From positions 9,297-73,296 of the forward strand of contig CAKMJZ010000001.1 in assembly GCA_927435855.1 (NCBI GenBank): 64,000 nt of DNA, in the 5' to 3' direction. Numbering within the stretch: position 1 is the stretch's first letter; every line of letters begins with the position of its first letter. The notes under the pieces were generated by a model. It saw only the letters and a list, made by a program, of their open reading frames with translations, had not been told where the DNA came from and made no database searches. Shown here one piece after another: positions 32,103 through 52,710 of the stretch. The translations under genes were made by a program, and so were the position numbers. Source of the stretch: an uncultured Erysipelotrichaceae bacterium. GTDB lineage: Bacteria; Bacillota_I; Bacilli_A; Erysipelotrichales; Erysipelotrichaceae.

Positions 32103-32896
32103 CTATTCACCCGATGCTAAAGGGGTAGGTGAAATAACTAGATCCTGAGCATCTTTCAATATGACGCCTGCTTTTTGCAAGTATTTCATAAAGTATAAGA
32201 AGGCTAGTTCTACTACACCGGTTACTAGGCGAACACTTACTGAAAGGATAACCATTTGAACAATCTGATCCCAAGGTCTTACGCCAACAAATGCTAGTAA
32301 TGTAAAGATTAAAGCATTTACAGTTAATCCAACGGAAGTAGAAACAAAGACACGCAACCATAACATACTACCTTTCGTGCGTGCTTTTAGCTTAGCGAAA
32401 ATGTGTACATTCAATAAACCACCAATGTATGTTGCGGTGATACTAGCAAATGCTACACGCGGAACAATCCCCATGAGTTTGGCAAACATATCGAAGTTTT
32501 CTTGGCCATTTGCCGGAGCTGGTAAGAAGATGATCCAAATTAAGAATAAAGTTGATAGTACTCGGACGACCATTTGGGCAAATACCGAAGATCTGCGAGT
32601 TTTTTACCATAGAATTCATTAATATAATCTTCTCCGCAAGCCAATAGTGGATACATAAGTGATCCGGCAATGATGAAGAATGTTTGACCACCAAAGGTAA
32701 GTCCAACAAATTTCGCGGATGTAAAGGAGACCATGATTTGTAAGCCGGACATTAAGGCAACCAAGATGACAGGAGCATATCCTTTGCCATAGCGATCTGC
32801 CCAAACAGCGGCGATGACGATGATGATTAGGCCATACCCTAATGTAATAAGTAGATTAGGGACACCTGACCAAGGACCAGTAATAAAAGGTACCAT
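32103..32896 (-). pseudogene. VUT-family (YhhQ/DUF165, queuosine-precursor-type) transporter interrupted by a frameshift
   Basis: Two consecutive ORFs (32540-32926 and 32103-32573) are the N- and C-halves of one VUT protein. Adding one A to the A6 run (plus-strand T6 at 32600-32605) restores ...EFYGKKTRRSSVFAQMVVRVLST... Confidence 0.75.
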
Positions 32897-32929: not shown

Positions 32930-33811
32930 TTATGTAACTAAGACTGCTTTTAATACTTCCATAGAAACTGTAAATATCGGGTTCACAACTTGTGCTATTT
33001 TTAGATTTCCCGTTTGTCCGACAAGAGCATAAGCCTCATCGAATGAACAGTTATTCTTATTTTGAACAAATGCGATTGCTGTTTTTGTTGCTTCCTTACA
33101 GGCTGTTAACAAATCAGCATGTGATGAAACAAATTCAAAGCTTATCGGAGTTTCAACGTAAGGAGCATCTAGTCTACGGTTTTTCTCAACAGTAACCACG
33201 ATTTCCACTGTACTGCCAATTTCTACACCCGTACCCAGAACTTCCCCTGCTCCCATCGCTGCGTGTACATCGCCTAAGGATAATAATCCACCTTCAACTT
33301 GTACAGGCAAGTAAACTGTGTTGCCGGTTGTTACTGCCGGAACATCCATATTACCGCCATGCAGTCCTGGGTATAAACATGCTATATCATCCCCTGCTGG
33401 TGCAACTCCGATAGTTCCTATCATAGGCATAATCGGAATCTTAATATTTTTACTGAAATTCACGAATCCATTTTCAACAGTAACCTTCTTCAAGAAACAA
33501 TGATCGACTTCATCCATCAGTAATCCCATCCACTGGCCCATCCACATCTTACCTGCGGAATCAAGATCTATACTTTGAATATCGATTTTAAGGACATCCC
33601 CTGCATTGCAGTCTTCAATATAGATTGGGCCTGTGATTGAAAGGATTCTTTTTGGAAACGGTTCCACGTTATAGTCTTTTGTAAAGACTTCATCAGGAAT
33701 CCCTGGTTTTGCGGTTTCAACAATGAGCTTATCTCCGCTTCTAGCTTTGATTGCTGGTTCATTGTTTTTAGACATAACATGAATAATATTTTGTGTTGTG
33801 ACTTTATTCAT
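32930..33811 (-). CDS. Acetamidase/formamidase-family amidase
   Basis: 293 aa. The N-terminal layout and the GGNMD / GDVHAAMGAGE motifs are typical of FmdA/AmdA. Confidence 0.8.
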   Translation of the reverse strand: MNKVTTQNIIHVMSKNNEPAIKARSGDKLIVETAKPGIPDEVFTKDYNVEPFPKRILSITGPIYIEDCNAGDVLKIDIQSIDLDSAGKMWMGQWMGLLMDEVDHCFLKKVTVENGFVNFSKNIKIPIMPMIGTIGVAPAGDDIACLYPGLHGGNMDVPAVTTGNTVYLPVQVEGGLLSLGDVHAAMGAGEVLGTGVEIGSTVEIVVTVEKNRRLDAPYVETPISFEFVSSHADLLTACKEATKTAIAFVQNKNNCSFDEAYALVGQTGNLKIAQVVNPIFTVSMEVLKAVLVT

Positions 33812-34037: not shown

Positions 34038-35906
34038 TTACGCAGGTACCATTGGTCCTTGTTTCTTCTTACGAGCAATCTGTAACAAAACAACTAAGAT
34101 AATCAACCCAAAACCGATCATATCTGTTGTAAAGCCAGAGAGAATTAACAAGATTGAGGCGACAACTAGCAATGCCCTGTCAAAATAGTTAGTAACGGTT
34201 AGCAGATATCCTTGCATAACGGCTGAGAATGCCAGAACACCAACCAGACTGGTCGTAAACGCCCAGAAGATTTGACCAGGCTCGCCAACCCATAGCAGAT
34301 AAGGAATATAAACGAACATTAATGGAACATAGTATATGGACAGTCCCATTCGTAGAGAGTACCAACCGGTCTTCCATGTGTCCGCACCGGCAATCGCCGC
34401 GGCAACGTAGGCCGATAGACATACAGGCGGTGTAATAACGGATAATTGACTGGTCCAGAAAACGAAGAAGTGAGCAGTCAATAGAGGTACGCCCATATCT
34501 ACTAATGCTGGAGCGGCCAAAGTTACAAGAACCAAGTAAGCAGAAGATACATTCATTCCCATACCCAAGACAAAGCTTGCAGCCATAACCAATACTAAGG
34601 CTATTGGCAGATTTCCATTGGCTAATTGAATGATGATTGAGCTAAATTTCATACCTAACCCTGGCAATGAAATTGCAGCTACTAAGATACCGACGGCACC
34701 GGCTGTTGTGGCTAAAGCCAAAGAGCTTTTTCCGCCATCCGCCAAAGCATTGAATAAATCTTTGAGTGACATGCGAGTATCTTTTCTGATCATTGAAGCT
34801 AAATAGCAACTGACTATTGCCCAGAAACCAGCCATCGAAGGTGAGAAACCATTGGACAAGAAGTAAATAATGACTCCGATAGGCAGGAAGAAATACCAGC
34901 CTTTCTTTAATACATCCCATGCTTTTGGAAGTTCATCTACTGGAATTCCTTTCAAATCTGATCGTTTTGCTTCAAGATAGACCATAAAGACCATACTGAA
35001 GAAAAATAGCAATGCAGGCAATAAACCAGCCATAGCGATGGTCAAATATGGAACACCGACAAAAGCAGCCATTAAGAAAGCCGCTGCACCCATGACAGGT
35101 GGCATAAACTGCCCCCCAATGGATACTACAGCTTCAATTGCTGCAGCTACATGTGGTTTGTATCCGCGAGATAGCATCATTGGAATCGTGACAGATCCAG
35201 TAATCGCTGTATTGGCTGTGGAAGACCCCAAAACTGAGCCTAACATCCACGAAGATACAACAGCCGTTTGTCCGGCACCACCGGTAAAACGTCCGACAGC
35301 CGCTTTGGAAAGTTCAACAAAGAAATCTCCTGCCCCAGAAGCTTTAATAAAACTTCCGAAAATGACAAATAAGAAAATAAAGGTAGAGAATACATAGACA
35401 ACCGATCCAAAGATACCTTCAGTACTTGCATACAAGACACTGATGATACGGTTGATGCTGTAACCACGATGGTAAATCACGGTAGGCATATATTTGCCAA
35501 AGTAGGTATAGGCTAAAAAGACGAGCGCAATAATTGCCAATGAATTACCGACGGTTCGCCGACTTGCTTCAAGGACAAGAAATACTGCCAGAATACCCAT
35601 TGATAATTCAATCGTCGTTAGTGGAATTCCTGCATTGGTTGTGAATTTATCAAAATTCATGATAAAGTAAGCGATTGTTGCTGTAGATAATAAGATCAAA
35701 ACATAATCTGATATTTTAACAGGCAGACTGGCTTCTTTTTTCCTATTGGGATTGATTAAAAAGGCCAATACCAAAGCAAACCAAATATATAATCCACGAG
35801 TGTACTGTACTTGCCAGAATCCAAAGGCAGCTTGATAGATAAACACAACCGAAAAAACAGCTGCCAATATACTTATTAAAAGCGCTTTTTTATTTTTTAC
35901 TTCCAT
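34038..35906 (-). CDS. TRAP transporter fused permease (4TM/12TM, TAXI-associated type)
   Basis: 622 aa and highly hydrophobic. The N-terminus (IYQAAFGFW...YTRGLYIWFALVLAFL) is typical of fused TRAP permeases. Confidence 0.88.
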   Translation of the reverse strand: MEVKNKKALLISILAAVFSVVFIYQAAFGFWQVQYTRGLYIWFALVLAFLINPNRKKEASLPVKISDYVLILLSTATIAYFIMNFDKFTTNAGIPLTTIELSMGILAVFLVLEASRRTVGNSLAIIALVFLAYTYFGKYMPTVIYHRGYSINRIISVLYASTEGIFGSVVYVFSTFIFLFVIFGSFIKASGAGDFFVELSKAAVGRFTGGAGQTAVVSSWMLGSVLGSSTANTAITGSVTIPMMLSRGYKPHVAAAIEAVVSIGGQFMPPVMGAAAFLMAAFVGVPYLTIAMAGLLPALLFFFSMVFMVYLEAKRSDLKGIPVDELPKAWDVLKKGWYFFLPIGVIIYFLSNGFSPSMAGFWAIVSCYLASMIRKDTRMSLKDLFNALADGGKSSLALATTAGAVGILVAAISLPGLGMKFSSIIIQLANGNLPIALVLVMAASFVLGMGMNVSSAYLVLVTLAAPALVDMGVPLLTAHFFVFWTSQLSVITPPVCLSAYVAAAIAGADTWKTGWYSLRMGLSIYYVPLMFVYIPYLLWVGEPGQIFWAFTTSLVGVLAFSAVMQGYLLTVTNYFDRALLVVASILLILSGFTTDMIGFGLIILVVLLQIARKKKQGPMVPA

Positions 35907-35948
35907 AGAAATATCCTCCCTCTAGAAAGCTTATCCAATCATAAGCAA

Positions 35949-35976
35949 TTTTAGTAGGGAGTGACCCCTACTAAAA
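35949..35976 (-). other. Intercistronic 11-bp hairpin between the TAXI SBP and permease genes
   Basis: ttttagtaggg...ccctactaaaa perfect stem with no strong U-tract. Likely an mRNA stabiliser or attenuator. Confidence 0.45.
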
Positions 35977-35988
35977 TTATTTCATTGA

Positions 35989-36966
35989 CTACTTAACGTC
36001 ACCAGTTTCCTTATAAAACTTTAGTGCACCTGGATGTAAAGGTAATGCGATTTTCTCGAAGCGTTCAATACCCGGAGACATTTCCCTGAATGCAGCTTGT
36101 ACATTTTTTAAATATTCTCTTCCGCTTGTACTAAACATTGTCTTTAACATCTCATAGATGACCCATTCAGGAACATCTTCATTTGCAACCCAAATTACAG
36201 AATAACCAACTGTTAATAGCGGTTGCTTAACACTAGTGTAAACACCAACCGGTACAGTATAGGATACATGATATGGATAGTCCGTTAAGAACTTGTCAAC
36301 ACGGGCTTGATCAACCGGAATTAAGCGCATCGGATGCGATGCTTCAAGTTCGATCAATGCAGGAATCGGAGATGTACCACCAATGATTAACGCATCAATG
36401 TGTCCATCGCGTAAAGAAGAAGCTGAATCATCGAAACTTAAGTACTCGATGGAAATCTTATCAAACAAGCCTACAGAAGTTAAGAATTCAGTAGCTACCG
36501 AAGCACTACCCGAACCTTTAGGTCCGATGGATACTTTTTTGCCTACTAAGTCATCAAGTGTAAAGATATCATATTTTTCTAAAGTTACAAAGTTAAGTGC
36601 GCCATCGTGAATATTAGCAACAGCACGTAGACCTTCGTATTTTTGATCTACAAACTCTGCTAAACCCCGTTGAATGTTGTAAGCTGTAGATCCGTAAGCG
36701 AATCCCATTTCGGTTTCGCCAGCAGCCATTAATCGAACATTTTCAACAACACCTTTGGTAACTTCTGCTGTGACTGTAAGTCCTTCGACTTCATTTGTGA
36801 CTAAGGATGAAATACCTGCTCCTGCAACATAGAATGTTCCGCCTTGACCACTGGTGGCAAAGGATACATCGGCTCTGCGGTCGCCCTCTTCGCCCGGTGC
36901 TCCGCAACCGACCAGCAATGAGGCTAGAAGAATTAAGCTGATTAACATTTTGGAAAAATTTTTCAT
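35989..36966 (-). CDS. TAXI-family TRAP solute-binding lipoprotein
   Basis: Lipobox LLVGC. GGTFYVAGAGISSLV...VTAEVTKGVVENVRLMAAGETEMGF matches the TAXI signature. Confidence 0.88.
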   Translation of the reverse strand: MKNFSKMLISLILLASLLVGCGAPGEEGDRRADVSFATSGQGGTFYVAGAGISSLVTNEVEGLTVTAEVTKGVVENVRLMAAGETEMGFAYGSTAYNIQRGLAEFVDQKYEGLRAVANIHDGALNFVTLEKYDIFTLDDLVGKKVSIGPKGSGSASVATEFLTSVGLFDKISIEYLSFDDSASSLRDGHIDALIIGGTSPIPALIELEASHPMRLIPVDQARVDKFLTDYPYHVSYTVPVGVYTSVKQPLLTVGYSVIWVANEDVPEWVIYEMLKTMFSTSGREYLKNVQAAFREMSPGIERFEKIALPLHPGALKFYKETGDVK

Positions 36967-37155: not shown

Positions 37156-37980
37156 TTATATCCATTCTAGTATTGTTTGATACAGTTGCTCTGTCTCATC
37201 ACTTTCAATCTGATCGAATTCATGCTTATTTGACCATGATGTGTAAAGCACAGAATTACCGTATTTTTTTTTAATTTCTAACGAATTCTGATAACTAACA
37301 TCTTTGTCATAAAAGCTTGCTGCAAGAAAAGTGTCAGGAAATTCTATTCCCTCAACATATATATCCGTGTCTAACTTACTGTTATGAATCCCCAACAACT
37401 TTAACCAATTACCCGTTTGCCTTGCATATATGTACAACAGATATCGTTTTAGAAGACTGGTATTGAGAACAGGTTGTTTCTCTATGGAGGACTTCACATC
37501 ATCCCATGACAAATGCGGATATGTAGCGTAGTGTTCACTGGGCAGAATAAACTCTGAAACATTCAGATATTCATACCCGTAGAAAATAATCAGTTTCACA
37601 GGCTTTTTTTGTTGTAGCATGGCCATTCGCTTTGTAAGGAATAAAGCCAAAAAACCTCCAGCAGATCGTCCAAAGAGAATATAGTCATCCGATATACTCA
37701 TTTTTTCATGATTGTTTAAATACCAAATCAATTGATGCTCAACAAAATCACATATCTGAGATAGTGACAATTCCGGAGCTTTAGGATACTCCATGCAGAT
37801 TAAATCATACCCTGCGTTTGTTAGTTTTTTGATGGCATAAATCGGAAGGTCATCTTTAGATCCAAAGATGAACCCTCCGCCATGATAATATACGATCGTT
37901 TTATTTGCACGATTGCCCATCGCCCGGTGCAAGGAGACTTGATGATGAAATCCGCCTATTTCAAGATCGATCGTGTCCAT
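37156..37980 (-). CDS. Alpha/beta hydrolase (esterase/lipase, Abhydrolase_3 type)
   Basis: HGGGF oxyanion motif and GRSAGG nucleophile elbow. Confidence 0.8.
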   Translation of the reverse strand: MDTIDLEIGGFHHQVSLHRAMGNRANKTIVYYHGGGFIFGSKDDLPIYAIKKLTNAGYDLICMEYPKAPELSLSQICDFVEHQLIWYLNNHEKMSISDDYILFGRSAGGFLALFLTKRMAMLQQKKPVKLIIFYGYEYLNVSEFILPSEHYATYPHLSWDDVKSSIEKQPVLNTSLLKRYLLYIYARQTGNWLKLLGIHNSKLDTDIYVEGIEFPDTFLAASFYDKDVSYQNSLEIKKKYGNSVLYTSWSNKHEFDQIESDETEQLYQTILEWI

Positions 37981-37988: not shown

Positions 37989-39146
37989 TTACTCGAAAAC
38001 TACACCCGCACGAACTAAAAGTGCAGGTTGGCTTTGGTAAGCAATAACCTCATTGAAAGTTAAAGCTTCAAGAACGGTTATATCAGCTTTCCCTCCGATT
38101 TTTATTCCATAATCCTTAATCGAAAGAACCTTCGCTCCTTCGTTGGTAATCATCTTGAAAACCTGATCAACTTCTTCTTGTAAGAAGAAACGTTGTAAAT
38201 AACTCAATAAAAGGGCCACTTGCTTAACATCACCACTTCCCAACGGATTGAAGAAGTCGCGCATATTATCGCTTGCTAGTCCTACAGGTAATCCTGTCTT
38301 CAACAATCTCTTTACCGGTGCAATGTTGCGTGTGGATATAGCCGTAGGAGCGACAGTCACTCGAAGTTGAGCAACTTCAATATAGTTTATCGCTTCATCT
38401 AATTCTTCAGGTGACAAAGCGCTTAATGTACAAAGATGAATACCATTAACTTTGCCCTGTAGATTCTTCTCAACGATCTTTTTTGACAAATACGGAAGCA
38501 GATAATGTTCACGATTTCCGGATTCATCCAAATGGAAATCAGCTTCAACACTGTATTTCTGGGCTAAGTCCAAGATAAAGTCAATGTGCTTTTCTCCCTC
38601 GCCCTTAGCAATCGTATGTCCACCCACTAAATCAGCACCCATCTTCAAAGCTTCTTCAAGCAAGACTTCCGTTTGTCCATCCCAGAAAACACCTTCCTGA
38701 GCAAACGCTGCTACCTGAAGATGAATTTCATTCTCATACTTTTTCTTCAATTTCAATAAAGCTTCAACACCTTTTAAACCGACACTGCCATCAACATCCA
38801 CGTTGGTACGCCAATGCAATGTTCCAGCTTTGATCGCTCTTTTAATCATTTTCTCAGCACGGACAGTTATATCATCAACCGTGAAGTTCTTCTTCATTTC
38901 ATAAGTAAGAGCACCTTTTTGAGGACCTGTGCCCTCTTGATAAGGCTGTTGCTCATTCAATAAACACTTATCCAAATGTGTATGACAATCTACAAAGCCA
39001 GGAATCGTGACGCGTTTTTTTGCATCAAAAACGACAGTAGCATCTCCATATATTTGATTATCGATATCGACAACGACACCATCTTTGATAGCAATATCGA
39101 CAAGAGCACCGTTAACATTTGCTTTACGGATTAGTACATCCAACAT
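37989..39146 (-). CDS. Cytosine-deaminase/AtzC-like metal-dependent amidohydrolase
   Basis: FVDCHTHLD (HxH), GGH, and a late ASDN metal ligand. 385 aa. Confidence 0.75.
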   Translation of the reverse strand: MLDVLIRKANVNGALVDIAIKDGVVVDIDNQIYGDATVVFDAKKRVTIPGFVDCHTHLDKCLLNEQQPYQEGTGPQKGALTYEMKKNFTVDDITVRAEKMIKRAIKAGTLHWRTNVDVDGSVGLKGVEALLKLKKKYENEIHLQVAAFAQEGVFWDGQTEVLLEEALKMGADLVGGHTIAKGEGEKHIDFILDLAQKYSVEADFHLDESGNREHYLLPYLSKKIVEKNLQGKVNGIHLCTLSALSPEELDEAINYIEVAQLRVTVAPTAISTRNIAPVKRLLKTGLPVGLASDNMRDFFNPLGSGDVKQVALLLSYLQRFFLQEEVDQVFKMITNEGAKVLSIKDYGIKIGGKADITVLEALTFNEVIAYQSQPALLVRAGVVFE

Positions 39147-39147: not shown

Positions 39148-40245
39148 TTAATCAGCCTTAACGATTGCGGCTACAAGATTTGCGCCTAAAGGGCCTTGAT
39201 GTTCAAATCCGGCAGAAGCCAAAATCATCGTATCACCAATCATAGAGCCAACGATTGCATTCACCACAGCTTTCGCAATGATTCCTTGATATCCGGCTAA
39301 AAAATCAGATCTCATCGTTGTACGACGACCGCGAATGGATCCCATAGCGTCTGCTCCGGCGTTGATAAATACGGTCGCAACGCGATCACGTTGATCTTGT
39401 GGGATCACTTCATCAAATAGAAGACCTGCGGATTTAAAGGCAGCTTTCGCACCATCGACATCCAATGTATCCTTCATGACACCTGAACCGATTTTATACT
39501 TACTGACTGAAGTTTTTGAGTTGCCCATAACAATAATCTTGCTTGCAATTTGTTCATTACCTGCTGAAGTCGACGCTACTTTCGAATACAGATTCCAATT
39601 GGAGCAAATCGCTTCATCAGTTACATCTTCATCTCTAATTTCACCTAATGCAAGAGCTACACCAAGAGCAGAAGCACCCTTAGACTTAGCACCTGCATCC
39701 GCAAAATTGGTTGAGACAACTTTCTTACCACGGCTTTGAGCATCTGCGACACGTGCTGCCGTTAAGTTTGGACACTTAACTTCAACACAATGGACATCAG
39801 CGATATCTTCAATACCGGCTTCTGCCATCGCTTTTCTAACTGCATCCGCAACCAATAGTACGTGCGTGCGTGTACCGTACTCTTCTGGCAACAATACGCG
39901 TGTCAATTGAATCCCTAATGACAGACGTTTTTCGGTAACTTCAACATCTTCCACTTCTCTTCGAGTAAATACGGTGTAGTGCGGGCTCATCAACCCACCG
40001 GTCAACCCGATCATCAACATTGGGATTTGGTCAGCGACTTCCTTACGCGAAACATTCAATTTTTCTGATAACATTAACTCAAAGCTTAAAGCACTGTAAC
40101 CGCGGGCATAACCATCCCCTTCGGTTTGGGCAATGATTGCACAAATCTCCTTTGGATCGACGGTGCCATCATCGATAAGCTTAGCTAACTGAGATACATC
40201 ATCCGGACCTGCCATCGGCAAGCGATATACATTAAAATCTTTCAT
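39148..40245 (-). CDS. Ring-opening amidohydrolase of the cyanuric acid hydrolase (AtzD/TrzD)/barbiturase family
   Basis: Collinear by eye with AtzD as I recall it (VYRLP...TEGDG..RGY...SPHYTVFTRR...VEVKCP...KGASALGVALA...EHQGP). 365 aa. Confidence 0.8.
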   Translation of the reverse strand: MKDFNVYRLPMAGPDDVSQLAKLIDDGTVDPKEICAIIAQTEGDGYARGYSALSFELMLSEKLNVSRKEVADQIPMLMIGLTGGLMSPHYTVFTRREVEDVEVTEKRLSLGIQLTRVLLPEEYGTRTHVLLVADAVRKAMAEAGIEDIADVHCVEVKCPNLTAARVADAQSRGKKVVSTNFADAGAKSKGASALGVALALGEIRDEDVTDEAICSNWNLYSKVASTSAGNEQIASKIIVMGNSKTSVSKYKIGSGVMKDTLDVDGAKAAFKSAGLLFDEVIPQDQRDRVATVFINAGADAMGSIRGRRTTMRSDFLAGYQGIIAKAVVNAIVGSMIGDTMILASAGFEHQGPLGANLVAAIVKAD

Positions 40246-40246: not shown

Positions 40247-41656
40247 TTATTCCTCCATTTGTTTATATAGTGTCTTTATTGCTTCTTTAAACATTGGCAT
40301 AGGCGCGCGGGCAAGACCTGCACCAACCATGCCACCACCGGCTTTTTTACTTGCAATCGCCGTATTGATGACGGGTAGAGTTCCGGTTTCTACTACTTTG
40401 ATAATGTTAATCCCTAACGGTGATCCTCTGAAATTAAGATTTGGAATAGCGAACATCGCACTTTCACCTAAACAGATGTCATACATTTCATTGGTATAGT
40501 TAAGCGCATCGGAAACTGTGCCCGCTCCAAGGAGTTTAACGATAGCTGGTGCTGCGGCCATAGCGAATCCACCGACCCCACCGGTTTCCATGATAGCACT
40601 ATCCCCAATATCCGGATTAGCGTCTTCTACGGTATATCCCGGGAAATATAGTCCAGCAACTTCCGCGGCTGGCGCTATAAACCATTGCTCGTTCAGTCCA
40701 CTGACTCGAATTCCGATATTGACACCATTTCTTGCCATTGCCGTTACCATCGTTGAGTAAGGTATATTACTCGCTGCATCGGTAGATGCTTTCATCGCCG
40801 CCATCGCAAAGTTTAAGAAAAACTGATCGTTATTCGTTGTCAGAAATCTCGCTATTTCAGGTAACGTCTGAGCATCTGCACTTTCCGTTAGTGCGGCCAT
40901 GATTGTTTTTAGGAAAATCGACGTTGATGAGTTATTGCGCATATGCAACTCATCTCCCATATTCAATGCTTGTGATATCAGAACTTTTAAGTTTACAGGT
41001 CCTTTATCCACAATGTTTTTCATGGTTAAAGCGAGAACATTTTCAATCCACTTCAACCGACGAACGGTATTCTCTCCATATGCCCCAAAACGAGCCACAT
41101 CCCCGGCACCCTCATTAAATGTCGAATATGCCATATTTCCTTCTTCCGTATTCTTTACACAAAGCAAAGGCATAGAATAGGAAATCACGCCCGTCATCGG
41201 TCCGACACATCCGTAATGATGACAAGGTTCAAAGCGAATGCGCGTCAATGCTAATTGATGAGCTTGCTCATCATTATCAGCCAATCCTTCATACATAAGT
41301 GCCGCATACACAGCTCCTTGCATCGGAACACACATATCCTTAAATTCAATGGGCGGACCAGCATGCAAAAGCGTATACCGATCTAAATTTATCGCTTCAT
41401 GTGCCGGTTTGACATCAATCCAAACAGGCGCAGAAGCATTCAGCTTATTAAACGCCTTCTGATTTGCTTCGACTACACGAGGATCACTTGCCAGTGCATC
41501 AACGATTTTAACTAATTCCGGATCTCCTTGGGCACGCGGTTTCCACTCAACATGACCGGATTCGACGTTTTGTTGTTGCAATGTCAGATAAAACTGCTCA
41601 AGTCCGACATTGAGAACATTTAACTTTGATCCGAATAGATTATTAACTGAGCTCAA
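40247..41656 (-). CDS. DUF1116 (YlbE/AllG-like) protein, copy 1
   Basis: 469 aa. Paralog of the 44797-46209 protein. Shares HAGPP, GPMTG, FNEG.G, LKW, NDQFFLN, GDSAI(M/I)ET.G.GGFAM motifs. Confidence 0.8.
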   Translation of the reverse strand: MSSVNNLFGSKLNVLNVGLEQFYLTLQQQNVESGHVEWKPRAQGDPELVKIVDALASDPRVVEANQKAFNKLNASAPVWIDVKPAHEAINLDRYTLLHAGPPIEFKDMCVPMQGAVYAALMYEGLADNDEQAHQLALTRIRFEPCHHYGCVGPMTGVISYSMPLLCVKNTEEGNMAYSTFNEGAGDVARFGAYGENTVRRLKWIENVLALTMKNIVDKGPVNLKVLISQALNMGDELHMRNNSSTSIFLKTIMAALTESADAQTLPEIARFLTTNNDQFFLNFAMAAMKASTDAASNIPYSTMVTAMARNGVNIGIRVSGLNEQWFIAPAAEVAGLYFPGYTVEDANPDIGDSAIMETGGVGGFAMAAAPAIVKLLGAGTVSDALNYTNEMYDICLGESAMFAIPNLNFRGSPLGINIIKVVETGTLPVINTAIASKKAGGGMVGAGLARAPMPMFKEAIKTLYKQMEE

Positions 41657-41678: not shown

Positions 41679-43142
41679 TCATTCGACAGGACGGATAAAT
41701 CTGTTCATGCCGATATCCTTCTTAATCTCTCTTAAATACATCTTTCTGTAATAGGGATACTGTTGTTCAAGACGCACAAACGCTTCTTTGGTCGTTGCTG
41801 AGAGTTTATTTGAAATCTCGATAGCTTCTTTTATAAGGGCTTGTTCATCAATCAACAATGATTTACCGTCTTTAACGACAGTCTCACCATCTACCATAAC
41901 ACGAACGATGTTTTGTCCGGTTTCCATATACACCAATTGCGTCATGATATCGCAAACAGGTTGCCACAGAATATTCATCGTGTCGATAAATACCAAGTCA
42001 GCCGCATATCCAACTTCTATCTTACCTATGTCATCACGCATCATCACTCTTGCGCCATTATCATAGCACATCTGTAAGGATTGCTTAGCCGACAGCCAGT
42101 GATCATAATCTGGCTGCGCCAAATTGTGCAAGTCAGCAGTCAAACGTATTTTCTCTAGCAAATTCAGATTTCCGGAATTTCCTCCATCAGTGCCAATAGC
42201 AACTTTATTACCATCTTTTACCAATTGATCGACCGGAGCTACGCCACTACCTAAATGCAAGGATGAACTTGGGCAGTGTACGATATTGACCTGATTCTTG
42301 CGAACCAATTCTTTTTCGATATCAGTAACCCAAATATAATGCACAAAGCTTGTTTTTTTGTTTAACAATCCTAACTCATCAATATACTCAATCAAACCTT
42401 TACCATAGCGGTTATAGGATGCAATAGCCTGAGTTTTCGTTTCCAAAATGTGCGTATGCCAACCGCAGTCATGTTCTTTAACAAAATCAGCTGTTTTATA
42501 CATAAGCTCATCACTGCAACGTTGAGGTCCATCAACTCCGACTACGAAATTCACTTTACTTTTTCCGTTGTACTTATCCATTGCACTTTTCATCAGTTCA
42601 AAATACTCTTCATGGCTCATGGATGATGGTAAACTGTGAAACTCTGAGGGTAACTCATTTTTTTCAAAGGGAATTGTATCTGTAAATGGTAAATCTGAAT
42701 ACTGTGGGGCGATATTCGCCTTGATCCCGCAATCCGTATACGCTAGCGCTGCCGATTCCATACCTTCCAACGTCGCTTTGGGTCTCATCATGAAATGATC
42801 GAAGGTTGAAGTTACTCCAAATTTTAGGAGTTGTAATCCCTCTAATTGAGTTGAAACATAAATTTCCCTTGGATTTCTTACTGTATTCCCCGCAAAGGCA
42901 TGTAACATATAAATGTCCAATGGCACATTATCGATAGTTCCCTTTAGAAAACTAGTATATGAATGAGAATGAGCATTGATTAGTCCAGGGATGACAATCT
43001 GCCCACTTGCATCAAAAGTTTCATCGACAACAACGTAATCACTGTCAAGTTGAGCAATCTTTCCATCTTCTATCAGAATATTCCCCGTTTGCCAAGTATA
43101 ATCTTTAGTCAAATATGTAGCATTGGTTATGAGTTTTTTCAT
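41679..43142 (-). CDS. Amidohydrolase of the deaminase/chlorohydrolase subgroup (COG0402: guanine deaminase/AtzA-AtzB/SsnA-like)
   Basis: INAHSHSY (HxH), HTHILET, VHC, and GTDGG metal/catalytic motifs. 487 aa. Confidence 0.8.
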   Translation of the reverse strand: MKKLITNATYLTKDYTWQTGNILIEDGKIAQLDSDYVVVDETFDASGQIVIPGLINAHSHSYTSFLKGTIDNVPLDIYMLHAFAGNTVRNPREIYVSTQLEGLQLLKFGVTSTFDHFMMRPKATLEGMESAALAYTDCGIKANIAPQYSDLPFTDTIPFEKNELPSEFHSLPSSMSHEEYFELMKSAMDKYNGKSKVNFVVGVDGPQRCSDELMYKTADFVKEHDCGWHTHILETKTQAIASYNRYGKGLIEYIDELGLLNKKTSFVHYIWVTDIEKELVRKNQVNIVHCPSSSLHLGSGVAPVDQLVKDGNKVAIGTDGGNSGNLNLLEKIRLTADLHNLAQPDYDHWLSAKQSLQMCYDNGARVMMRDDIGKIEVGYAADLVFIDTMNILWQPVCDIMTQLVYMETGQNIVRVMVDGETVVKDGKSLLIDEQALIKEAIEISNKLSATTKEAFVRLEQQYPYYRKMYLREIKKDIGMNRFIRPVE

Positions 43143-43155: not shown

Positions 43156-44763
43156 CTACAACACTTGAGTTATAAACAGTATCGCTCCTACAATAACTGC
43201 TGCTGTAACTGTGATCGGTAAAACTTTCTTCAGTACGACACCTTCTTGGCCAAGAATTCCAGCCGTAGTCGTGCCTAAGATAACATTACCTGGACAGATG
43301 GTATTACCGATAGCTCCTCCAGCCGTTTGCGCACCAAGAATAGCCGCTACATTAAGCGATAGAATTCTGGCGGTAGTCAACTGAAATTCACCGAACAGAA
43401 TATTGGATGCCATGTTCGAACTGGTCATAAATGCTCCTAACATACCAACGACCGGTGCGAATATTGCATAGCTTTTTCCTAAAGTTGATGCAATTCCTTG
43501 AGCTAAAATCACTGTTTGACCTGTGCCACCCATAATTCTAGACATAAGTATAAAACCTAACACAGCCAGTGCTGATGGTAATGTCTTTTCAAATGAGCGC
43601 CTCAAAACAGCTTTACCGCCTTCTTTTTGAATCCATCCATGTTTCTTAAAGAAAACATAGCCAATATATGCGGATAGAAGCAAAAACATTCCGGCATGTG
43701 TCAGTGGTGAAAACGGTGAAAACGAAGATGATGCTGCATTGACATATCCATACCCAGTCATCGTTTCAGGAAAAGCAAATCCGAATTTGATCTGACCTAA
43801 AAATTGTTTTATCGGCTGAATTAGCAATACAAACAGCGTGACAAACGTCAGAACATAATAGGGTAGAAAGGCCTGATGCATAGACATGTTTTTAGGATAG
43901 TCTTGAACTGCACCATTATTTTGGCGATTCATAACCTTGCTATCTTCAATCCGCCAAGCCTTTCCATACATTTTAGTTCTTCCTATCAACAATATTGCGA
44001 CCAAAGACAAAACCGCAGGGATAAACGCGGCCAAAGTTTGGTTAACTTGGCTAAGCAAAAGTTGCCCTCCACCTTGTATCAAAGAAATAACGATGACAAC
44101 CGGTAATCCGCGAATAAGACCTTCCTTTTTACCGTAAATCCAACTAATCGCAATTCCCGTAATGAAGTTCCAAACCCAGATGAAACTCGCTGCCCACATT
44201 GCGGTTTGAAGCAAAAGTGCCGGATCAGCCGCCAAATTTGTTTGAAGTACAAGTGCATCCCACGCGACTGCCAATGTTCCAAATGTGTTAGCCCAAGCAT
44301 GTCCGATTAATGGAATCAAAACTGCCCAAATAGGTGTGACACCAATACCGACCAATAGCGGAGCACCAACAGCGACCGGAACACCGAAACCCGTGATACC
44401 TTGTAAGAAACTCATAAATACCCAACCTAAAGCAATGACTTGTACCAACTCATTAGGTGTATATTTTTGTAAACCATTTCTAAACACTACAAAAGCCTTG
44501 GCTTCGTTAACAACTTCAAAAAGTAGTATCGCCGGCCACACTACGATAAGGACGACAATAGTACTCCAAACGCCTTTTAAACTTTCAATTAGAACCAAAA
44601 ATAGGTCTGCTTTATAAAAGAAAAGTCCTGTAACCAAAGCAATGGCAAATCCGATCGGTGCAGCTTTTGTTGCGCCCCATTGGGAGCCAACCATTAAGAC
44701 TAGTAAAACTATGATGGGTAATGCGGCTAAAAGCCACATCCCAATATTCAACGGAATATTCAT
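43156..44763 (-). CDS. LctP-family (L-lactate/glycolate-type) carboxylate permease
   Basis: 535 aa with about 12+ TM helices. The N-terminus (LAALPIIVLLVLMV...W.ATKAAPIG) is typical of LctP. Confidence 0.8.
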   Translation of the reverse strand: MNIPLNIGMWLLAALPIIVLLVLMVGSQWGATKAAPIGFAIALVTGLFFYKADLFLVLIESLKGVWSTIVVLIVVWPAILLFEVVNEAKAFVVFRNGLQKYTPNELVQVIALGWVFMSFLQGITGFGVPVAVGAPLLVGIGVTPIWAVLIPLIGHAWANTFGTLAVAWDALVLQTNLAADPALLLQTAMWAASFIWVWNFITGIAISWIYGKKEGLIRGLPVVIVISLIQGGGQLLLSQVNQTLAAFIPAVLSLVAILLIGRTKMYGKAWRIEDSKVMNRQNNGAVQDYPKNMSMHQAFLPYYVLTFVTLFVLLIQPIKQFLGQIKFGFAFPETMTGYGYVNAASSSFSPFSPLTHAGMFLLLSAYIGYVFFKKHGWIQKEGGKAVLRRSFEKTLPSALAVLGFILMSRIMGGTGQTVILAQGIASTLGKSYAIFAPVVGMLGAFMTSSNMASNILFGEFQLTTARILSLNVAAILGAQTAGGAIGNTICPGNVILGTTTAGILGQEGVVLKKVLPITVTAAVIVGAILFITQVL

Positions 44764-44796: not shown

Positions 44797-46209
44797 TTAA
44801 TCGTATTTTTCGCCAAAGGCTTCCAAAGCCTTAACGAAACAGTCCATTGGCGGATTTACGATTCCAGCCCCCACTTGGCCGATACCCGGCTTTTTGTGCG
44901 CCATGCCGGTATTGATGACAGGCAAACTGCCTGTTTCAACTACTTTGCGAATATCGATGGCCGTCGCTGTACCAACGAAATTCATGGTCGGAATGACGAA
45001 ATGCGGACTCAATCCGACACATATATCTTGCATTTCCTTCGAGTAAGCAATAGCTTCATCGACTGAACTTGCACCTACAAAGCGAACGACTGCCGGAGCA
45101 GATCCCATCGCGAAACCACCGATTCCGAAAGTCTCAATAATGGTGCTGTCACCGATATCGGGATTAGCATCTTCTGCGGAATAACCCGGGAAATATAACC
45201 CTTTGGGTTGATTGACCGGAGCTTCAAACCATTGCTCTCCTAATGCGCTAATCTTAATACCAAAGTTGGTACCGTTACGACTCAATGTCGTAACTACCGT
45301 ACTATTCGGCACGTTTTTTACCGGATCACAAATGGCTTTACCAGTTGCCATCGCAATATTAAGGAAGAATTGGTCGTTTCCAGTCACAAACTCGGTGATC
45401 TTGAACAATTCTTCTTTGTTATCAACTACTTGAACCAAGTACTTCATAATTTCCCGGACAAACAACGAACTTGCTCCGGTATTGCGTTGGTGCATTTCAT
45501 CACCCATAGCTAATGCTTTAGCAACGATAACTTTTAACGATATTGGACCGGATAATGCTAGCGCCTTCTTCATGGCTGGTCCCAATGATGTTTCCAACCA
45601 CTTCAATCGTTCAATGACATCAGGACCATTTGCACCAAAGCGCATAACTTTCCCCAATCCTTCGTTGAATGGGCAATACGCTTTATTTCCGTAGGAAGTG
45701 TTTGTCACTTCCCAAAGCGGCATCGAATAGGTAACCATACCGGTCATTGGACCAACAGCACCCATGCTATGATTGGGTCTAAATTTAATTTTACCGGCTT
45801 TGACAATTTCTTCAGATTCTTCTAGGCTGCTAGATAGACCTTCGTACATTATGGCCCCAAGGATTGCGCCTTGTAATGGACCACACATGTCTTCCCAAGC
45901 CAGAGGCGGACCAGCATGACCAATGGTATACTTATCCATTCCATCAATTACTTCATAGGCATATTTGACATCCGTTAATACCGGTTCAGCGTTATTCATA
46001 ATATCGAACGCTTTTTTGTTAGCCTCTTCGATTTCCGGAGTATTTAACTTCGCTAACAAAGCGGCAAGTTTCGGATTTCCTCCGGCAATCGGACGCCATT
46101 CGACATGCACAGCGGATACATTTTGTTCAACAACTGTTTGATAGAAAGTTTCCAGTCCGACATTGGTTACTTTAATCGAATGATTAAACAGTTCATTTAC
46201 TTTTGACAT
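44797..46209 (-). CDS. DUF1116 (YlbE/AllG-like) protein, copy 2
   Basis: 470 aa. Sits immediately downstream of the FdrA-like gene, as ylbE does in E. coli. Confidence 0.8.
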   Translation of the reverse strand: MSKVNELFNHSIKVTNVGLETFYQTVVEQNVSAVHVEWRPIAGGNPKLAALLAKLNTPEIEEANKKAFDIMNNAEPVLTDVKYAYEVIDGMDKYTIGHAGPPLAWEDMCGPLQGAILGAIMYEGLSSSLEESEEIVKAGKIKFRPNHSMGAVGPMTGMVTYSMPLWEVTNTSYGNKAYCPFNEGLGKVMRFGANGPDVIERLKWLETSLGPAMKKALALSGPISLKVIVAKALAMGDEMHQRNTGASSLFVREIMKYLVQVVDNKEELFKITEFVTGNDQFFLNIAMATGKAICDPVKNVPNSTVVTTLSRNGTNFGIKISALGEQWFEAPVNQPKGLYFPGYSAEDANPDIGDSTIIETFGIGGFAMGSAPAVVRFVGASSVDEAIAYSKEMQDICVGLSPHFVIPTMNFVGTATAIDIRKVVETGSLPVINTGMAHKKPGIGQVGAGIVNPPMDCFVKALEAFGEKYD

Positions 46210-46221: not shown

Positions 46222-47766
46222 CTAAAGTCTTTCTAAAATAAGAGCAGCAAGTTGTGCGGCTTGTGCATTGGTCGGAAGAACGATAATACCAATATTTAAC
46301 AATTTTTCAACTTGATCACTCAGTACTTGAGGATCTTTTTCTGTTCCGCACACAGAAGCGATGTAAGTTATATGACGCTCCCCTTGCAAAGCTTTGGCTT
46401 GTTCAACTGCTAATGCGATAGAGCTTGCCGGGTCCGGATGACTTCCATAACCCAATACACAATCCAAGAGTATTACTGCTGTTTGTGGATCGGATGCTTC
46501 CTTTTTAATACGTTCAGAACGTAATTTTGGTTCGATCATTGGATGAGGCATACCATCTGTAAAGTAATCTTCCCCCATATCCAAGATTGTATTTTCTTGA
46601 CTGACTTCTACATCCTTTAAAGAGAGTTCTTTGTTTATAGCTATATTCGAGTAAACGTTTCCAACTTTTTTGTTAAGAATCAACATGGCTTCATAAGCTA
46701 ACGTACCGCCGGTATACAACCCCCGAAGATTCTTTTGGCCTTGAAATTTATCAACTTCATCAGCAACAAGAGCATTTAACTCTTCCTCCGTGAAACTATT
46801 CAAGTTAACTGATAACTCGCCTTTAGACAATGTCACTAACTGTTTAGCTGCTTCTTCAATCGTTTCAGAAGCGATGGTGTGGGTACCTTCGACTAAGCTA
46901 GGATCTCCACCCAAGAAACATGCGACTACCGGTTTGGAAATGTTTTTTACTTTATCTAAGATTTTAACCATAATTTCTTGTGCTGGTGGTTTAGATACGA
47001 TGCCGATGACTTGTGTTTCAGGGTCGTTGATCAAAGCATCAAGAGCAAACAACATCATTTTCCCACCGATTTCCTTTTTGACATCTCTGCCACCGGTACC
47101 GATGGCTTGAGAAATACCGCCACCGAGCTTATCAATGACTACTGTCAATTCTTGAAGGCCGGTTCCGGATGCTGCAACTAAGCCGATGTTACCTCTTCGA
47201 ACGACATTAGCAAATCCAAGGGCAACACCGTTGATAATGGCAGTTCCACAATCGGTTCCCATCATTAACAATTCATTTTTAATAGCATAGTCTTTAAGTT
47301 CATTTTCCTCATCAATGGTTATATTATCTGAAAATAACAATACGTTCATATTGTTCTTAAGACATTTCATGGTTTCAGCTGCAGCAAATCTTCCCGGAAC
47401 TGAAATAATGGCGAAATTCAAGCCTTCCATTTTCTTAACAGCCGCATCTACCGTTTTAACTCGAATAGCTCCGCTTCCTTCGCTTGACTTTGCTTTATTT
47501 TCAAATTGCTCTTCTAATGTCTTGATGGCCAAATCAATGACATCTTGAGACACTGCTTTGATACCAATGACCAAATCATTTGCGGACACCTTACCAGCCA
47601 GTTCTTCTGAAAGAATTCCCGAGCTTTTCATTAGTTCAATATTGTGATCAGTCCCCATCATTACGGCGGCTTCCGAAACACCATCAATCCCACCTAATTT
47701 GCTAGAGAATAACATTAGTGTTACAGAATCAAAGTATGCATTGTGTTTAATTACATTATGAATCAT
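46222..47766 (-). CDS. FdrA-like (AllF-like) acyl-CoA-synthetase/succinyl-CoA-synthetase-fold protein
   Basis: N-terminal YFDSVTLM motif plus CoA-ligase-like Gly-rich segments. 514 aa. Confidence 0.8.
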   Translation of the reverse strand: MIHNVIKHNAYFDSVTLMLFSSKLGGIDGVSEAAVMMGTDHNIELMKSSGILSEELAGKVSANDLVIGIKAVSQDVIDLAIKTLEEQFENKAKSSEGSGAIRVKTVDAAVKKMEGLNFAIISVPGRFAAAETMKCLKNNMNVLLFSDNITIDEENELKDYAIKNELLMMGTDCGTAIINGVALGFANVVRRGNIGLVAASGTGLQELTVVIDKLGGGISQAIGTGGRDVKKEIGGKMMLFALDALINDPETQVIGIVSKPPAQEIMVKILDKVKNISKPVVACFLGGDPSLVEGTHTIASETIEEAAKQLVTLSKGELSVNLNSFTEEELNALVADEVDKFQGQKNLRGLYTGGTLAYEAMLILNKKVGNVYSNIAINKELSLKDVEVSQENTILDMGEDYFTDGMPHPMIEPKLRSERIKKEASDPQTAVILLDCVLGYGSHPDPASSIALAVEQAKALQGERHITYIASVCGTEKDPQVLSDQVEKLLNIGIIVLPTNAQAAQLAALILERL

Positions 47767-48779: not shown

Positions 48780-50447
48780 CTAGTTTACATCAATAATCTT
48801 ACCAATATGTAATGCTAACTGACAATTAAAGTTATATTCCGCATCCTTTAAGTCGTTTTGTAAAATTTGTTTGATCTTCTCAATTCGGTATATAAAGGTG
48901 TTTCGATGTATAAACATCGCCTTCGCTGCGATGCTCACGTTTCCATTGGCCAAATAATAAGACTCCAGCGTGCTCATTAGCTCAGCATTGTTATGTTTAT
49001 CATAATCACGCAAACTTCCAAGGGTTGAATCAAAGAAATTACGAAGTCTTACTTTATCAAGCGTGCTGTCTAGTAAGTGATAACTGATCAAGTCATTAAA
49101 ATAGAAAACTCCTTCACTGGTAGGTAGTTTTGCGGAAATACGCAGAACATCCTGAGCAAGCAAACACGATTTTCCGATAGCGAGAAAATCTGTGCAAACA
49201 TTGCTAACACCAATCCTATATACTAAGCCTTTGCAAGTGGAGTTGATGTTAAGTTCCACACGTTCAAGAAATCCTCGAACTTCAATGCTTGGCTCATAGC
49301 GACTCTCAGCTTCTTCAAGTTCTATAAACATGATCACATTATTTTCGCGAATGATCGACCTTACCCGCCGGCGACATTTCATGGCTACATCACTACATAT
49401 GTTGATGATTTCTTTTAGTGTATCTCGTGGTGCATCTTTTGTATTAATAACCGCACAAATATGGTTGCGCAATGGATTCATTCCGTGAATCTCTGCTAAG
49501 CTTTTTACAGCATTGACCGAAACGATTTTTCCTTGTAGTAAGTCATCATAGAAATCTTCTTTCATCTTATGCTGAGCTTCAATCATTTGTTTGGTCTTAA
49601 CTCTCTCCATCGCTGCCGATTGTGCAGCACTTTCAAGAGCTATATAGTCAATGCTTTCAAGTTTATGAGTGACTTCCCAAACTATGATGTATCCGTAAAT
49701 GATTTGGGAGTATGCAATTGGTATTACTCGACAAACGATACTTCCACTTTCATCTGGAAACTTACGCTTAATACTTAATGTAAACTTATTTGCACTCGTT
49801 GGTATTCCGTCGGTGAATTCCTTAGTAAAAACTTTTTCACGCTCAACCAACTGTAGATTATCTGTCAGTGTGTACGGATTGTTGGGTCGCTCATAGAAAC
49901 TTAGCAGGTTAAAGCCACTATCGAGCATGATTACCGGATTCTCGACCAGATCAGACGTAAGTTTGACAATCTCCCATAAGTTCCCACCATCGATAGAGCA
50001 TTTACTAAAAGCATTGTGAATATCCCTATACTTCTTGAAAACACTGTCCTCTCTTTGATGGACTTCCGCATTGATGATATTGGAAATTTGCGCCAGGCTA
50101 TAGGTAAATGGTATTTCTATGACCGGCAGTCCTCTTGAGTTTGCTTCATCAATGATAGCTTTGGGAATCTCATCCCAATATCTTTTCACTTTGATTCCGA
50201 GTCCTGCGCAATTTTGATCGGCTAACTCTTTAACAAGTTTTCGTTGCAAGGTCGTATCGTTAAGAAAAATATAACCGGTAGTCAAGATGAAATCTCCGGC
50301 CGTGAACCACTCAAAAGAATCCGGATTATCAATGATATTGGCATTAAAAATTTTATTCGTCAATCCTTTTCTTCCAGCTTTCAATTGTGCGCCAACTGGA
50401 CCTAAGTGTTGGATGAGTTTTTCAATAGTAAAGGAGTGCATAAGCAT
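48780..50447 (-). CDS. PucR/CdaR-family transcriptional regulator
   Basis: 555 aa. N-terminal PucR-type sensor domain (GLGIKVKRYWDEIP) and C-terminal HTH (MFIHRNTFIYRIEKIKQIL). GGAGGT RBS. Confidence 0.85.
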   Translation of the reverse strand: MLMHSFTIEKLIQHLGPVGAQLKAGRKGLTNKIFNANIIDNPDSFEWFTAGDFILTTGYIFLNDTTLQRKLVKELADQNCAGLGIKVKRYWDEIPKAIIDEANSRGLPVIEIPFTYSLAQISNIINAEVHQREDSVFKKYRDIHNAFSKCSIDGGNLWEIVKLTSDLVENPVIMLDSGFNLLSFYERPNNPYTLTDNLQLVEREKVFTKEFTDGIPTSANKFTLSIKRKFPDESGSIVCRVIPIAYSQIIYGYIIVWEVTHKLESIDYIALESAAQSAAMERVKTKQMIEAQHKMKEDFYDDLLQGKIVSVNAVKSLAEIHGMNPLRNHICAVINTKDAPRDTLKEIINICSDVAMKCRRRVRSIIRENNVIMFIELEEAESRYEPSIEVRGFLERVELNINSTCKGLVYRIGVSNVCTDFLAIGKSCLLAQDVLRISAKLPTSEGVFYFNDLISYHLLDSTLDKVRLRNFFDSTLGSLRDYDKHNNAELMSTLESYYLANGNVSIAAKAMFIHRNTFIYRIEKIKQILQNDLKDAEYNFNCQLALHIGKIIDVN

Positions 50448-52706: not shown

Positions 52707-52710
52707 AATA

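Follow-up and report, generated by a model that had tools for sequence, protein, structure and literature searches.

Cyanuric acid hydrolases (CAHs) and barbiturases are ring-opening amidohydrolases of a single family, AtzD/TrzD/barbiturase. The active site of CAHs is threefold symmetric and contains three Ser-Lys dyads. The dyad in domain 2 is the only one conserved in the whole family (Cho 2014), and Ser231, Lys161 and Arg52 form a strictly conserved set (Shi 2019). CAHs are defined by Arg at the positions of AtzD R194 and R324, which distinguish them from barbiturases, and by the motif SGGxExQGPxGGGP. Barbiturases have a signature of their own, formed by Asn195, His321, Lys325, Val345 and Ser/Ala346 in AtzD numbering (Peat 2013). 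Two other sets of sequences have been described: a "Bacillus subgroup", which carries Lys at the position of Arg188 (Cho 2014), and "Group V", a heterogeneous group which includes the proteins of Bacillus alcalophilus and B. cellulosilyticus (Peat 2013). We have analyzed a gene of this family, and the operon which contains it, in a 64,000 nt stretch of DNA from an uncultured Erysipelotrichaceae bacterium (GenBank assembly GCA_927435855.1, contig CAKMJZ010000001.1, positions 9,297 to 73,296), which will be called the window.

The protein coded by this gene (the target) has kept only one of the three dyads, that of domain 2. It is likely to be a functional one-dyad ring-opening amidohydrolase, which would open an asymmetric cyclic ureide and feed the formation of carbamoyl phosphate and ATP. 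What is shown directly is which active-site residues are present, how conserved they are, to which clade and fold the protein belongs, and which genes are linked to it.

The gene and its fold

The gene has the following position:

39148..40245, minus strand: AtzD/barbiturase-family (Toblerone-fold) ring-opening amidohydrolase of the one-dyad clade, 365 aa (PF09663, TIGR02714 and 6BUM matches, AF2 model)

Its start codon is the ATG at 40245, with a GGAGG ribosome-binding site 7 nt upstream. It starts 1 nt past the stop codon of the upstream gene, and the next gene starts 1 nt past its own stop codon. Profile PF09663 matches the full length of the protein (418.6 bits, cut-off 25), and TIGR02714 gives 360.7 bits (cut-off 153.1). 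The closest solved structure found by HMMER is the CAH of Moorella thermoacetica, 6BUM (E 2.6e-96); TrzD, AtzD, barbiturase, a Frankia enzyme and the Azorhizobium CAH (ACAH) are also matched. An AF2 model built from 58 sequences has a mean pLDDT of 96 and a pTM of 0.94. When compared with 6BUM by Foldseek, it shows the same three-repeat Toblerone fold (TM 0.95, rmsd 1.4 A, 47% identity). Profile scores above the cut-offs, the Toblerone fold and the Ser-Lys-Glu set of domain 2 all place the target in the AtzD/TrzD/barbiturase family.

Active-site residues

Residue equivalences were taken from HMMER alignments to solved CAHs (Moorella, TrzD) and from a MAFFT alignment with AtzD of pADP-1. The relevant positions are:

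40126..40128, minus strand: Gln40, replacing the Lys of repeat 1 (HMMER and MAFFT alignments)
40102..40104, minus strand: Arg48, the only active-site Arg retained (Moorella Arg52), flanking the domain-2 "B" site (alignment)
40009..40011, minus strand: Ile79, replacing the Ser of repeat 1 (Ile in 121/121 clade sequences)
39775..39777, minus strand: Lys157, the retained general base of domain 2, AtzD K162 (Lys in 120/121 clade sequences)
39679..39681, minus strand: Lys189, replacing a CAH-defining Arg, AtzD R194 and ACAH R188 (alignment)
39565..39567, minus strand: Ser227 in VASTSAGNE, the retained nucleophile of domain 2, ACAH Ser226 and Moorella Ser231 (Ser in 121/121; role according to Cho 2014 and Shi 2019)
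39553-39555, minus strand: Glu231, ACAH Glu230, at +4 from Ser227 (Glu in 120/121 clade sequences)
39361..39363, minus strand: Asn295, replacing the Lys of repeat 3 (alignment)
39355-39357, minus strand: Gly297, replacing the metal-ligand Glu of KAE (alignment; metal site according to Peat 2013)
39271..39273, minus strand: Lys325, replacing the second CAH-defining Arg, AtzD R324 (MAFFT alignment)
39214..39216, minus strand: Ser344, the retained Ser of repeat 3 without its Lys, followed by Ala345 where CAHs have Gly (alignment)

If the signature is written in the order K1 R1 S1 / K2 R2 S2 E2 / K3 R3 S3, the target reads QRI/KKSE/NKS, while CAHs read KRS/KRSE/KRS and barbiturase-type proteins KRS/KNSE/KKS. 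With its positions, the full signature of the clade is Q40 R48 I79 / K157 K189 S227 E231 / N295 K325 S344. What the target retains (S227, K157 and R48) is exactly the strictly conserved set of Shi 2019.

An earlier note on this DNA, based on an alignment by eye, had proposed that a single Ser-Lys dyad is kept. The alignments agree with this proposal and do not show three conserved dyads: Q40/I79 and N295/S344 are altered, K157/S227 is intact. All the motif strings quoted in the note are found in the target. In repeat 1, GKTEGNG has become AQTEGDG (Lys to Gln40, with about 4 residues gone) and MSGGTEG has become MIGLTGG (Ser to Ile79). In repeat 3, KAE has become NAG (Lys to Asn295) and Ser344 is kept. 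Repeat 2 is intact as claimed, with K157 in VEVKCP, S227 and E231, but its Ser motif had been misplaced: KGASALG aligns with RGASALG and contains Lys189, so five of the six motifs aligned by eye stand. S192 of KGASALG has to be discarded as the nucleophile of repeat 2: It is variable in the clade (S/C/A), whereas S227 is invariant. Nor is the third substrate Arg found in the RGRR motif (305-308): The true equivalent of AtzD R324 is K325.

Several other changes do not appear in the note. Besides K325, they include Gly83, found where CAHs have a Glu which flanks the Ser/Lys site of repeat 1, and Gly297 at the metal site, where the structural metal has a single side-chain ligand, Glu298 (Peat 2013). 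D316 and R321, invariant in CAHs and barbiturases, are Leu and Gly in the target. The residues missing in repeat 1 correspond to a 4-residue loop, CVND in CAHs, deleted after Gln40, between G45 and Y46 (40108-40113).

Conservation and phylogenetic position

A homologue search covered 5.8 billion proteins. The signature QRI/KKSE/NKS is identical in the best 120 homologues (120/120), which go down to 56% identity, and it is also found in 104 of the 106 further sequences retrieved from a Paenibacillus member. It is thus essentially invariant in about 225 homologues overall. The ratio dN/dS of the target against four orthologues is only 0.023–0.034. Near-invariance and low dN/dS indicate that the replacements have been fixed and selected and are not a consequence of decay.

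These data make it extremely unlikely that the gene is decaying or that the protein is a dead or merely ligand-binding pseudoenzyme. The losses that may be quoted for such a view are four of the six dyad residues, plus two Arg and the metal-ligand Glu. Nevertheless, the B-site set S227/K157/E231/R48 is complete and does not vary within the clade, dN/dS is 0.02–0.03, and the gene is translationally coupled within a conserved catabolic operon. The replacement residues are themselves invariant, which argues for a new specificity and not for drift. A clade which retains only Ser-Lys-Glu of domain 2 and Arg52 can be considered as a natural mutagenesis experiment: It supports this site as the one providing the nucleophile, against the proposal of Ser85 for AtzD.

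The maximum-likelihood tree has 106 rows, which are family representatives at 50% identity obtained in an exhaustive HMMER scan, and it includes AtzD, a TrzD-like gene from an enterobacterial plasmid, the Rhizobium CAH and actinobacterial barbiturase-type genes. The target falls within a clade of 24 rows (SH-aLRT 97), all of which have the QRI/KKSE/NKS signature. Lys at the position of AtzD R194 is found only in this clade among the 106 representatives. The clade is nested in a group of 32 rows (SH-aLRT 99) where dyad 1 is absent and the Lys of repeat 3 is mostly kept. No characterized enzyme is placed on this tree inside the 24-row clade or the 32-row group, and no solved structure was matched within either of them. 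Barbiturase-type rows (L012-L018 and others) are on the opposite side of the tree from the target, which does not group with the Group VI barbiturases. The earlier note had called this protein a member of a divergent subfamily, and the tree bears this out: No characterized AtzD, TrzD, Rhizobium CAH or barbiturase-type sequence is inside its clade, nor does the target cluster tightly with characterized CAHs.

Sister lineages without dyad 1 (P0122, P0126, P0128) have amidase, DUF1989, isochorismatase and Mo-hydroxylase genes in their contexts, which are uninformative about the substrate. Many plasmids of clinical enterobacteria carry a three-dyad, TrzD-like ring-opening amidohydrolase. In NZ_OQ821180 from Serratia (L030), the only one of these plasmids that was examined, the neighbors of the gene are an IS5 element and a nucleobase permease of the NCS2 family.

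The clade includes sequences from gut Clostridiales, groundwater Firmicutes, soda-lake anaerobes, alkaliphilic Bacilli and cyanobacteria. Among 300 sampled genomes of the class there is one other member (71% identity), and there is none among 28 genomes of the same family. This patchy distribution suggests that the module is an accessory island which moves horizontally.

A protein from Evansella (Bacillus) cellulosilytica DSM 2522, P0308 (CP002394), has the full QRI/KKSE/NKS signature. It is outside the rows of the tree, and is 63% identical to Paenibacillus P0123, which is in the clade of the target. The target may thus be assigned to the "Bacillus subgroup" and to Group V: It has the signature of the B. 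cellulosilyticus relative, and Lys at ACAH Arg188. The loss of the dyads is partly prior art, as two sequences of the clade had already been noticed a decade ago. Our full-text literature searches found no papers describing the function of the one-dyad clade. As far as we could search, its function, its misannotation and its conserved ATP-yielding context have not been described.

Annotation as a cyanuric acid hydrolase

Both CAH-defining Arg are Lys in the target (K189 and K325). The CAH motif reads SAGFEHQGPLGANL (S-A-G-F-E-H-Q-G-P-L-G-A-N-L), and 4 of its 10 fixed positions differ. The threefold-symmetric site with three dyads is also absent. On the other hand, the target gives 366.1 bits with the NCBIfam CAH equivalog NF052395, whose cut-off is 360. 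AtzD, the plasmid TrzD-like protein and the Rhizobium CAH score 535–580 bits with this profile, while members of the clade (the target, P0029, P0078, P0112, P0108 and P0063) score 325–372, on either side of the cut-off. Since the cut-off is in the middle of the range of clade scores, orthologues have received two different names in the databases: The one from Natronincola is a "cyanuric acid amidohydrolase", those from Liberiplasma, Paenibacillus and Evansella are "ring-opening amidohydrolases".

The name given by JGI/NCBI would be correct if the target were a genuine CAH. Its operon would then be an anaerobic pathway for melamine, ammelide and cyanurate, where carboxybiuret, biuret or allophanate is phosphorolysed to carbamoyl phosphate. 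The equivalog score is above the cut-off, the nearest solved structures are CAHs, and the neighboring genes resemble AtzC and the TRZ/ATZ enzymes of the triazine pathway. We consider this very unlikely in view of what has been lost: two of the three Ser-Lys dyads, both defining Arg, the C-terminal motif and the metal-ligand Glu. In ACAH, single mutations are enough to abolish most of the activity, with losses of about 10^8-fold for S79A and S333A, about 10^4-fold for K40A and about 5,000-fold for R188K (Cho 2014). True CAHs score far higher with NF052395 than the clade members mentioned above, and the target is in a separate clade. The label "cyanuric acid hydrolase" is probably wrong for this protein. 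Surveys of cyanuric acid degradation will over-count, because the clade straddles the equivalog cut-off and is named inconsistently.

The earlier note had suggested a substrate less symmetric than cyanurate, with a barbiturate-like or fused-ring compound as a candidate. A less symmetric substrate is a reasonable inference from the sequence, given the loss of both CAH-defining Arg and of the CAH motif, the effects of the ACAH mutations and a gene context which is not that of cyanurate degradation.

The operon in the window

The target is part of a tightly packed operon on the minus strand. Its genes are, in order:

48780..50447, minus strand: PucR-family regulator, the first gene of the operon (also in L002, L004, L005, L010, L039 and L044)
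47766-48638, minus strand: AllH-like protein, DUF2877 (profile match)
46222-47766, minus strand: AllF/FdrA-like protein (FdrA NF004760, 491 bits, cut-off 433)
44797-46209, minus strand: AllG-like paralogue 1, DUF1116 (profile match)
43156-44763, minus strand: LctP-family permease (profile match)
41679-43142, minus strand: TRZ/ATZ-type amidohydrolase (profile match)
40247..41656, minus strand: AllG-like paralogue 2, DUF1116, directly upstream of the target (PF06545, 279.5 bits)
37989..39146, minus strand: AtzC-like, cytosine-deaminase-type amidohydrolase, 1 nt past the stop codon of the target, which precedes it (AtzC 2QT3 match)
37156-37980, minus strand: alpha/beta hydrolase (profile match)

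These nine genes and the target make a ten-gene operon, after which come:

34038-36966, minus strand: TAXI-TRAP transporter (profile match)
32930-33811, minus strand: FmdA/AmdA-like amidase (profile match)

The AtzC-like protein is much closer to AtzC (2QT3, E 5e-59) than to CodA (1e-32). It keeps AtzC residues H60, H62, K65, Y82, Q160, H217, H249, D303 and N304; H219 is changed to D (CodA has Glu217 there) and W309 to F. Since the metal ligands of AtzC and the ring-binding residues K65, Y82, Q160 and N304 are kept, the sequence is consistent with a genuine deaminase whose substrate is an amino-dioxo ring.

The AllF, AllG and AllH genes are together in the operon, while carbamate kinase is elsewhere in the genome. 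Two homologues of this enzyme are found in other contigs, C54:8038-8958 and C37:10929-11825, one of them above the curated cut-off; the assembly is 70% complete, with 1.57 Mb. We should also note that the window contains two diverged AllG paralogues for one AllF and one AllH. The minimal modules of gut Clostridiales only keep the paralogue adjacent to the ring opener.

Beside the operon, at 52221-57382, there is an XDH-type molybdoenzyme set (Mo, FAD and 2Fe-2S subunits, a MobA-like protein and an NTPase). It is absent from all the related loci compared with the genes of the window. A functional link to this neighboring operon and to a purine permease has been discarded, as neither is conserved with the module in related loci. 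A Vut_1 match in the window (ORF 32103-32573, region 32103-32896) covers only the C-terminal part of the profile, consistent with a split gene.

Related loci

We have compared 16 loci from Erysipelotrichaceae, Clostridia, gut Oscillospiraceae/Clostridiales, Natronincola, Liberiplasma, a bacterium with a 10-Mb genome, Evansella and cyanobacteria. An AtzC-like gene is found immediately downstream of the target homologue in 14 of them. All the anaerobe loci examined have AllF/G/H-like genes together with the pair, and the second AllG-like paralogue is conserved next to the target homologue in L002-L011. In gut Clostridiales, the genes for AllH, AllF, AllG, the AtzD-like and the AtzC-like proteins form a stand-alone module of five genes between unrelated ones. 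Two cultured species, Natronincola ferrireducens (L039) and Liberiplasma polymorphum (L040), have a bona fide carbamate kinase inside the operon, beside the pair (412 and 379 bits, respectively, cut-off 358). In aerobes, the pair is found either with a RutB/BiuH-like isochorismatase, an AtzE-like amidase and a GGT-family protein, or with FmdA-like amidases and NMT1-type ABC transporters. The set formed by the alpha/beta hydrolase, TAXI-TRAP and FmdA-like genes recurs in Natronincola L039 and partly in L010.

Some minor observations can be added. In three distant lineages, those of the window, L010 (16579-18348) and L039 (19039-20758), the module comes with an FmdA/AmdA-like amidase and, after it, a transporter of the VUT (YhhQ) type. 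In Leptolyngbya sp. (L034), two AtzD-family paralogues (3407-4489 and 10001-11140) lie within 7 kb, in the company of an FmdA-like amidase, a phosphoribosyltransferase and binding proteins of the NMT1 type. The clade members of L032 and L033 also have a small phosphoribosyltransferase gene nearby. A GGT-family gene is near a clade member in two unrelated genomes, L033 (7528-9168) and L044 (19566-21041). This is the gamma-glutamyltranspeptidase family, to which the Klebsiella oxamate amidohydrolase HpxW belongs. It hints at oxamate, or another small amide like it, as a downstream intermediate.

Possible pathway and substrate

The following mechanism can be proposed. Lys157, stabilized by Glu231, would activate Ser227, which would attack one ring carbonyl held by Arg48. 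The acyl-enzyme might then be resolved by water, as proposed for the "B site" of CAHs. Site A (Ile79/Gln40/Lys325), site C (Ser344/Asn295/Lys189) and the shortened loop would form an asymmetric pocket. As sites A and C no longer mirror the B site, the expected substrate would be an asymmetric cyclic ureide, and not threefold-symmetric cyanurate.

The gene context allows us to suggest four steps. The AtzC-like deaminase would first convert an amino precursor to an oxo-ring; its constant presence as a partner suggests that the ring is made by deamination. Ring opening by the target would come next, and would give an N-carbamoyl compound of the same type as oxalurate or ureidomalonate. In anaerobes, an AllFGH-like carbamoyltransferase might cleave this compound with phosphate to give carbamoyl phosphate, from which carbamate kinase would produce ATP. 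That the opened product is an N-carbamoyl compound is suggested by the AllFGH-like genes and carbamate kinase in the context. The FmdA-like, GGT-like and AtzE-like hydrolases found nearby would fit the acyl-amide left after removal of the carbamoyl group. The sequence from ring opening through a carbamoyltransferase and carbamate kinase to ATP has been demonstrated in the anaerobic 2,8-dioxopurine pathway, with a different carbamoyltransferase.

Several facts weigh against this interpretation, besides the equivalog score of the target. The chemistry, the order of the steps and the substrate class are read from sequence and context, and a function was found for no member of the clade. The only enzyme tested from the heterogeneous Group V, AZC_3203, was inactive on cyanurate and barbiturate (Peat 2013). 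The LctP, TRAP and VUT transporters do not indicate a clear ligand. Two of the cyanobacterial loci have no adjacent AtzC-like gene and no adjacent AllFGH gene. Finally, oxalurate, in E. coli, is the only substrate for which AllFGH activity is known to have been demonstrated.

The target might instead work with the AtzC-like deaminase alone, and the AllFGH-like genes would then be a separate oxalurate module (allantoin branch) which happens to share the operon. Two points favor this: Aerobic Bacilli and cyanobacteria carry the clade without AllFGH, and AllFGH activity is proven for oxalurate only. This seems distinctly unlikely to us, since the five-gene set stands alone in gut Clostridiales, and the target is in all cases directly preceded by an AllG paralogue of its own. 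In addition, no allantoinase, AllC or AllD was seen in the operon or in the annotated parts of the related loci.

Another possibility is that the target is the barbiturase of an anaerobe, with the same function as Rhodococcus Bar. Such a pathway would start with the oxidation of uracil or cytosine to barbiturate or 6-aminouracil and continue with ring opening to ureidomalonate, from which the AllFGH-like enzyme would give carbamoyl phosphate and malonamate. Ureidomalonate is the CH2 homologue of oxalurate, and FmdA-like, GGT-like or AtzE-like amidases, which recur nearby, could hydrolyse the resulting amide. The AtzC-like partner retains residues which bind an amino-dioxo six-membered ring, and an XDH-type molybdoenzyme operon adjoins in the window. 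Nevertheless, of the barbiturase signature only the Lys (K325, barbiturase Lys325) matches. The target has K189, not Asn, at 194/195, G321/Q320 in place of His321, and A345 and G346 instead of Val and Ser/Ala. Barbiturase-type sequences retain three dyads (KRS/KNSE/KKS) and are in a different clade, the module lacks conserved XDH neighbors in related loci, and a hydrophobic Ile above one ring carbonyl is poorly compatible with a trioxo ring. On balance we find this unlikely, and prefer a one-dyad enzyme of distinct specificity which opens an asymmetric cyclic ureide.

As to the substrate of such an enzyme, our leading candidate, a tentative one, is barbiturate or a 5-substituted, barbiturate-type trioxo ring. 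Close behind comes a ring in which one position is not a carbonyl; it could resemble uracil, thymine or 5-azauracil, or be carboxylated, as in oxonate. There are three less probable options, similar to each other in weight: a parabanate-type five-membered ring, which would give oxalurate directly, a fused 2,4-dioxopyrimidine (xanthine- or lumazine-like), and some other compound. We have not equated the target with the xanthine amidohydrolase of the clostridial "xanthinase pathway", as there is no UbiD-type gene among the genes annotated around the clade. The xanthinase cluster of Tong 2023 reportedly contains a prFMN decarboxylase.

A more complete proposal seems evenly balanced to us: The ring opening catalyzed by the one-dyad clade may be part of an undescribed pathway which degrades a common asymmetric N-heterocycle and which, in anaerobes, yields ATP. 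In this pathway, the AtzC-like enzyme would make the ring, the B site would open it, and a specialized AllFGH would harvest the ureido group as carbamoyl phosphate. If this is true, it would be a third substrate specificity for the Toblerone fold and a second substrate for the AllFGH class of enzymes. In any case, the AtzC-like/AllFGH/carbamate kinase context provides a testable pathway hypothesis for a substrate question which has been standing since the family surveys of 2012–2017.

Comparison with known systems

The target shares with Moorella CAH (6BUM) and AtzD/TrzD (EC 3.5.2.15) the Toblerone fold, the length, Ser-Lys-Glu of domain 2, the equivalent of Arg52 and the EHQGP loop. It differs from them in dyad 1 (Gln/Ile), in the Lys of dyad 3 (Asn), in Arg194 and Arg324 (both Lys), in the deletion of the 4-residue loop, in the metal-ligand Glu (Gly), and in D316 (Leu) and R321 (Gly). 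Its context does not correspond to atzDEF or biuret hydrolase.

Rhodococcus barbiturase (5HWE, EC 3.5.2.1) and actinobacterial barbiturase-type genes have in common with the target the fold, Lys at AtzD Arg324 and an asymmetric substrate, which in the case of the target is a predicted one. On the other hand, barbiturase-type proteins have three Ser-Lys dyads and Asn at Arg194, and belong to a different clade. The closest precedent in the literature is found in Group V (class V) and the "Bacillus subgroup" (Peat 2013; Cho 2014), which include the B. cellulosilyticus protein with the signature of the target and Lys at Arg188. Group V is heterogeneous: In the alignment, its solved Frankia member (5HY0, class V) can be seen to have the three dyads, unlike the target. 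Consequently, no structure represents the one-dyad clade. The PDB title of 5HY0 is "orotic acid hydrolase", while the molecule is named "Ring-opening amidohydrolase"; we know of no published activity behind that title.

The operon can be compared with the oxamic transcarbamylase AllFGH and AllK of E. coli (PMC11326118, PMC9843812). Both have homologues of FdrA/AllF, AllG and AllH, and carbamate kinase is found in orthologous operons. The operon of the target differs in having two AllG paralogues, no genes of the allantoin pathway, and a linked ring opener and deaminase. The substrate of its AllFGH-like enzyme is probably not made from ureidoglycolate. Finally, an AtzC-type deaminase beside an AtzD-type ring opener, with K65, Y82, Q160 and N304 kept, recalls the AtzC-AtzD steps of pADP-1; in the locus described here, the deaminase has Asp for His219 and Phe for Trp309, and the ring opener is not a typical CAH.

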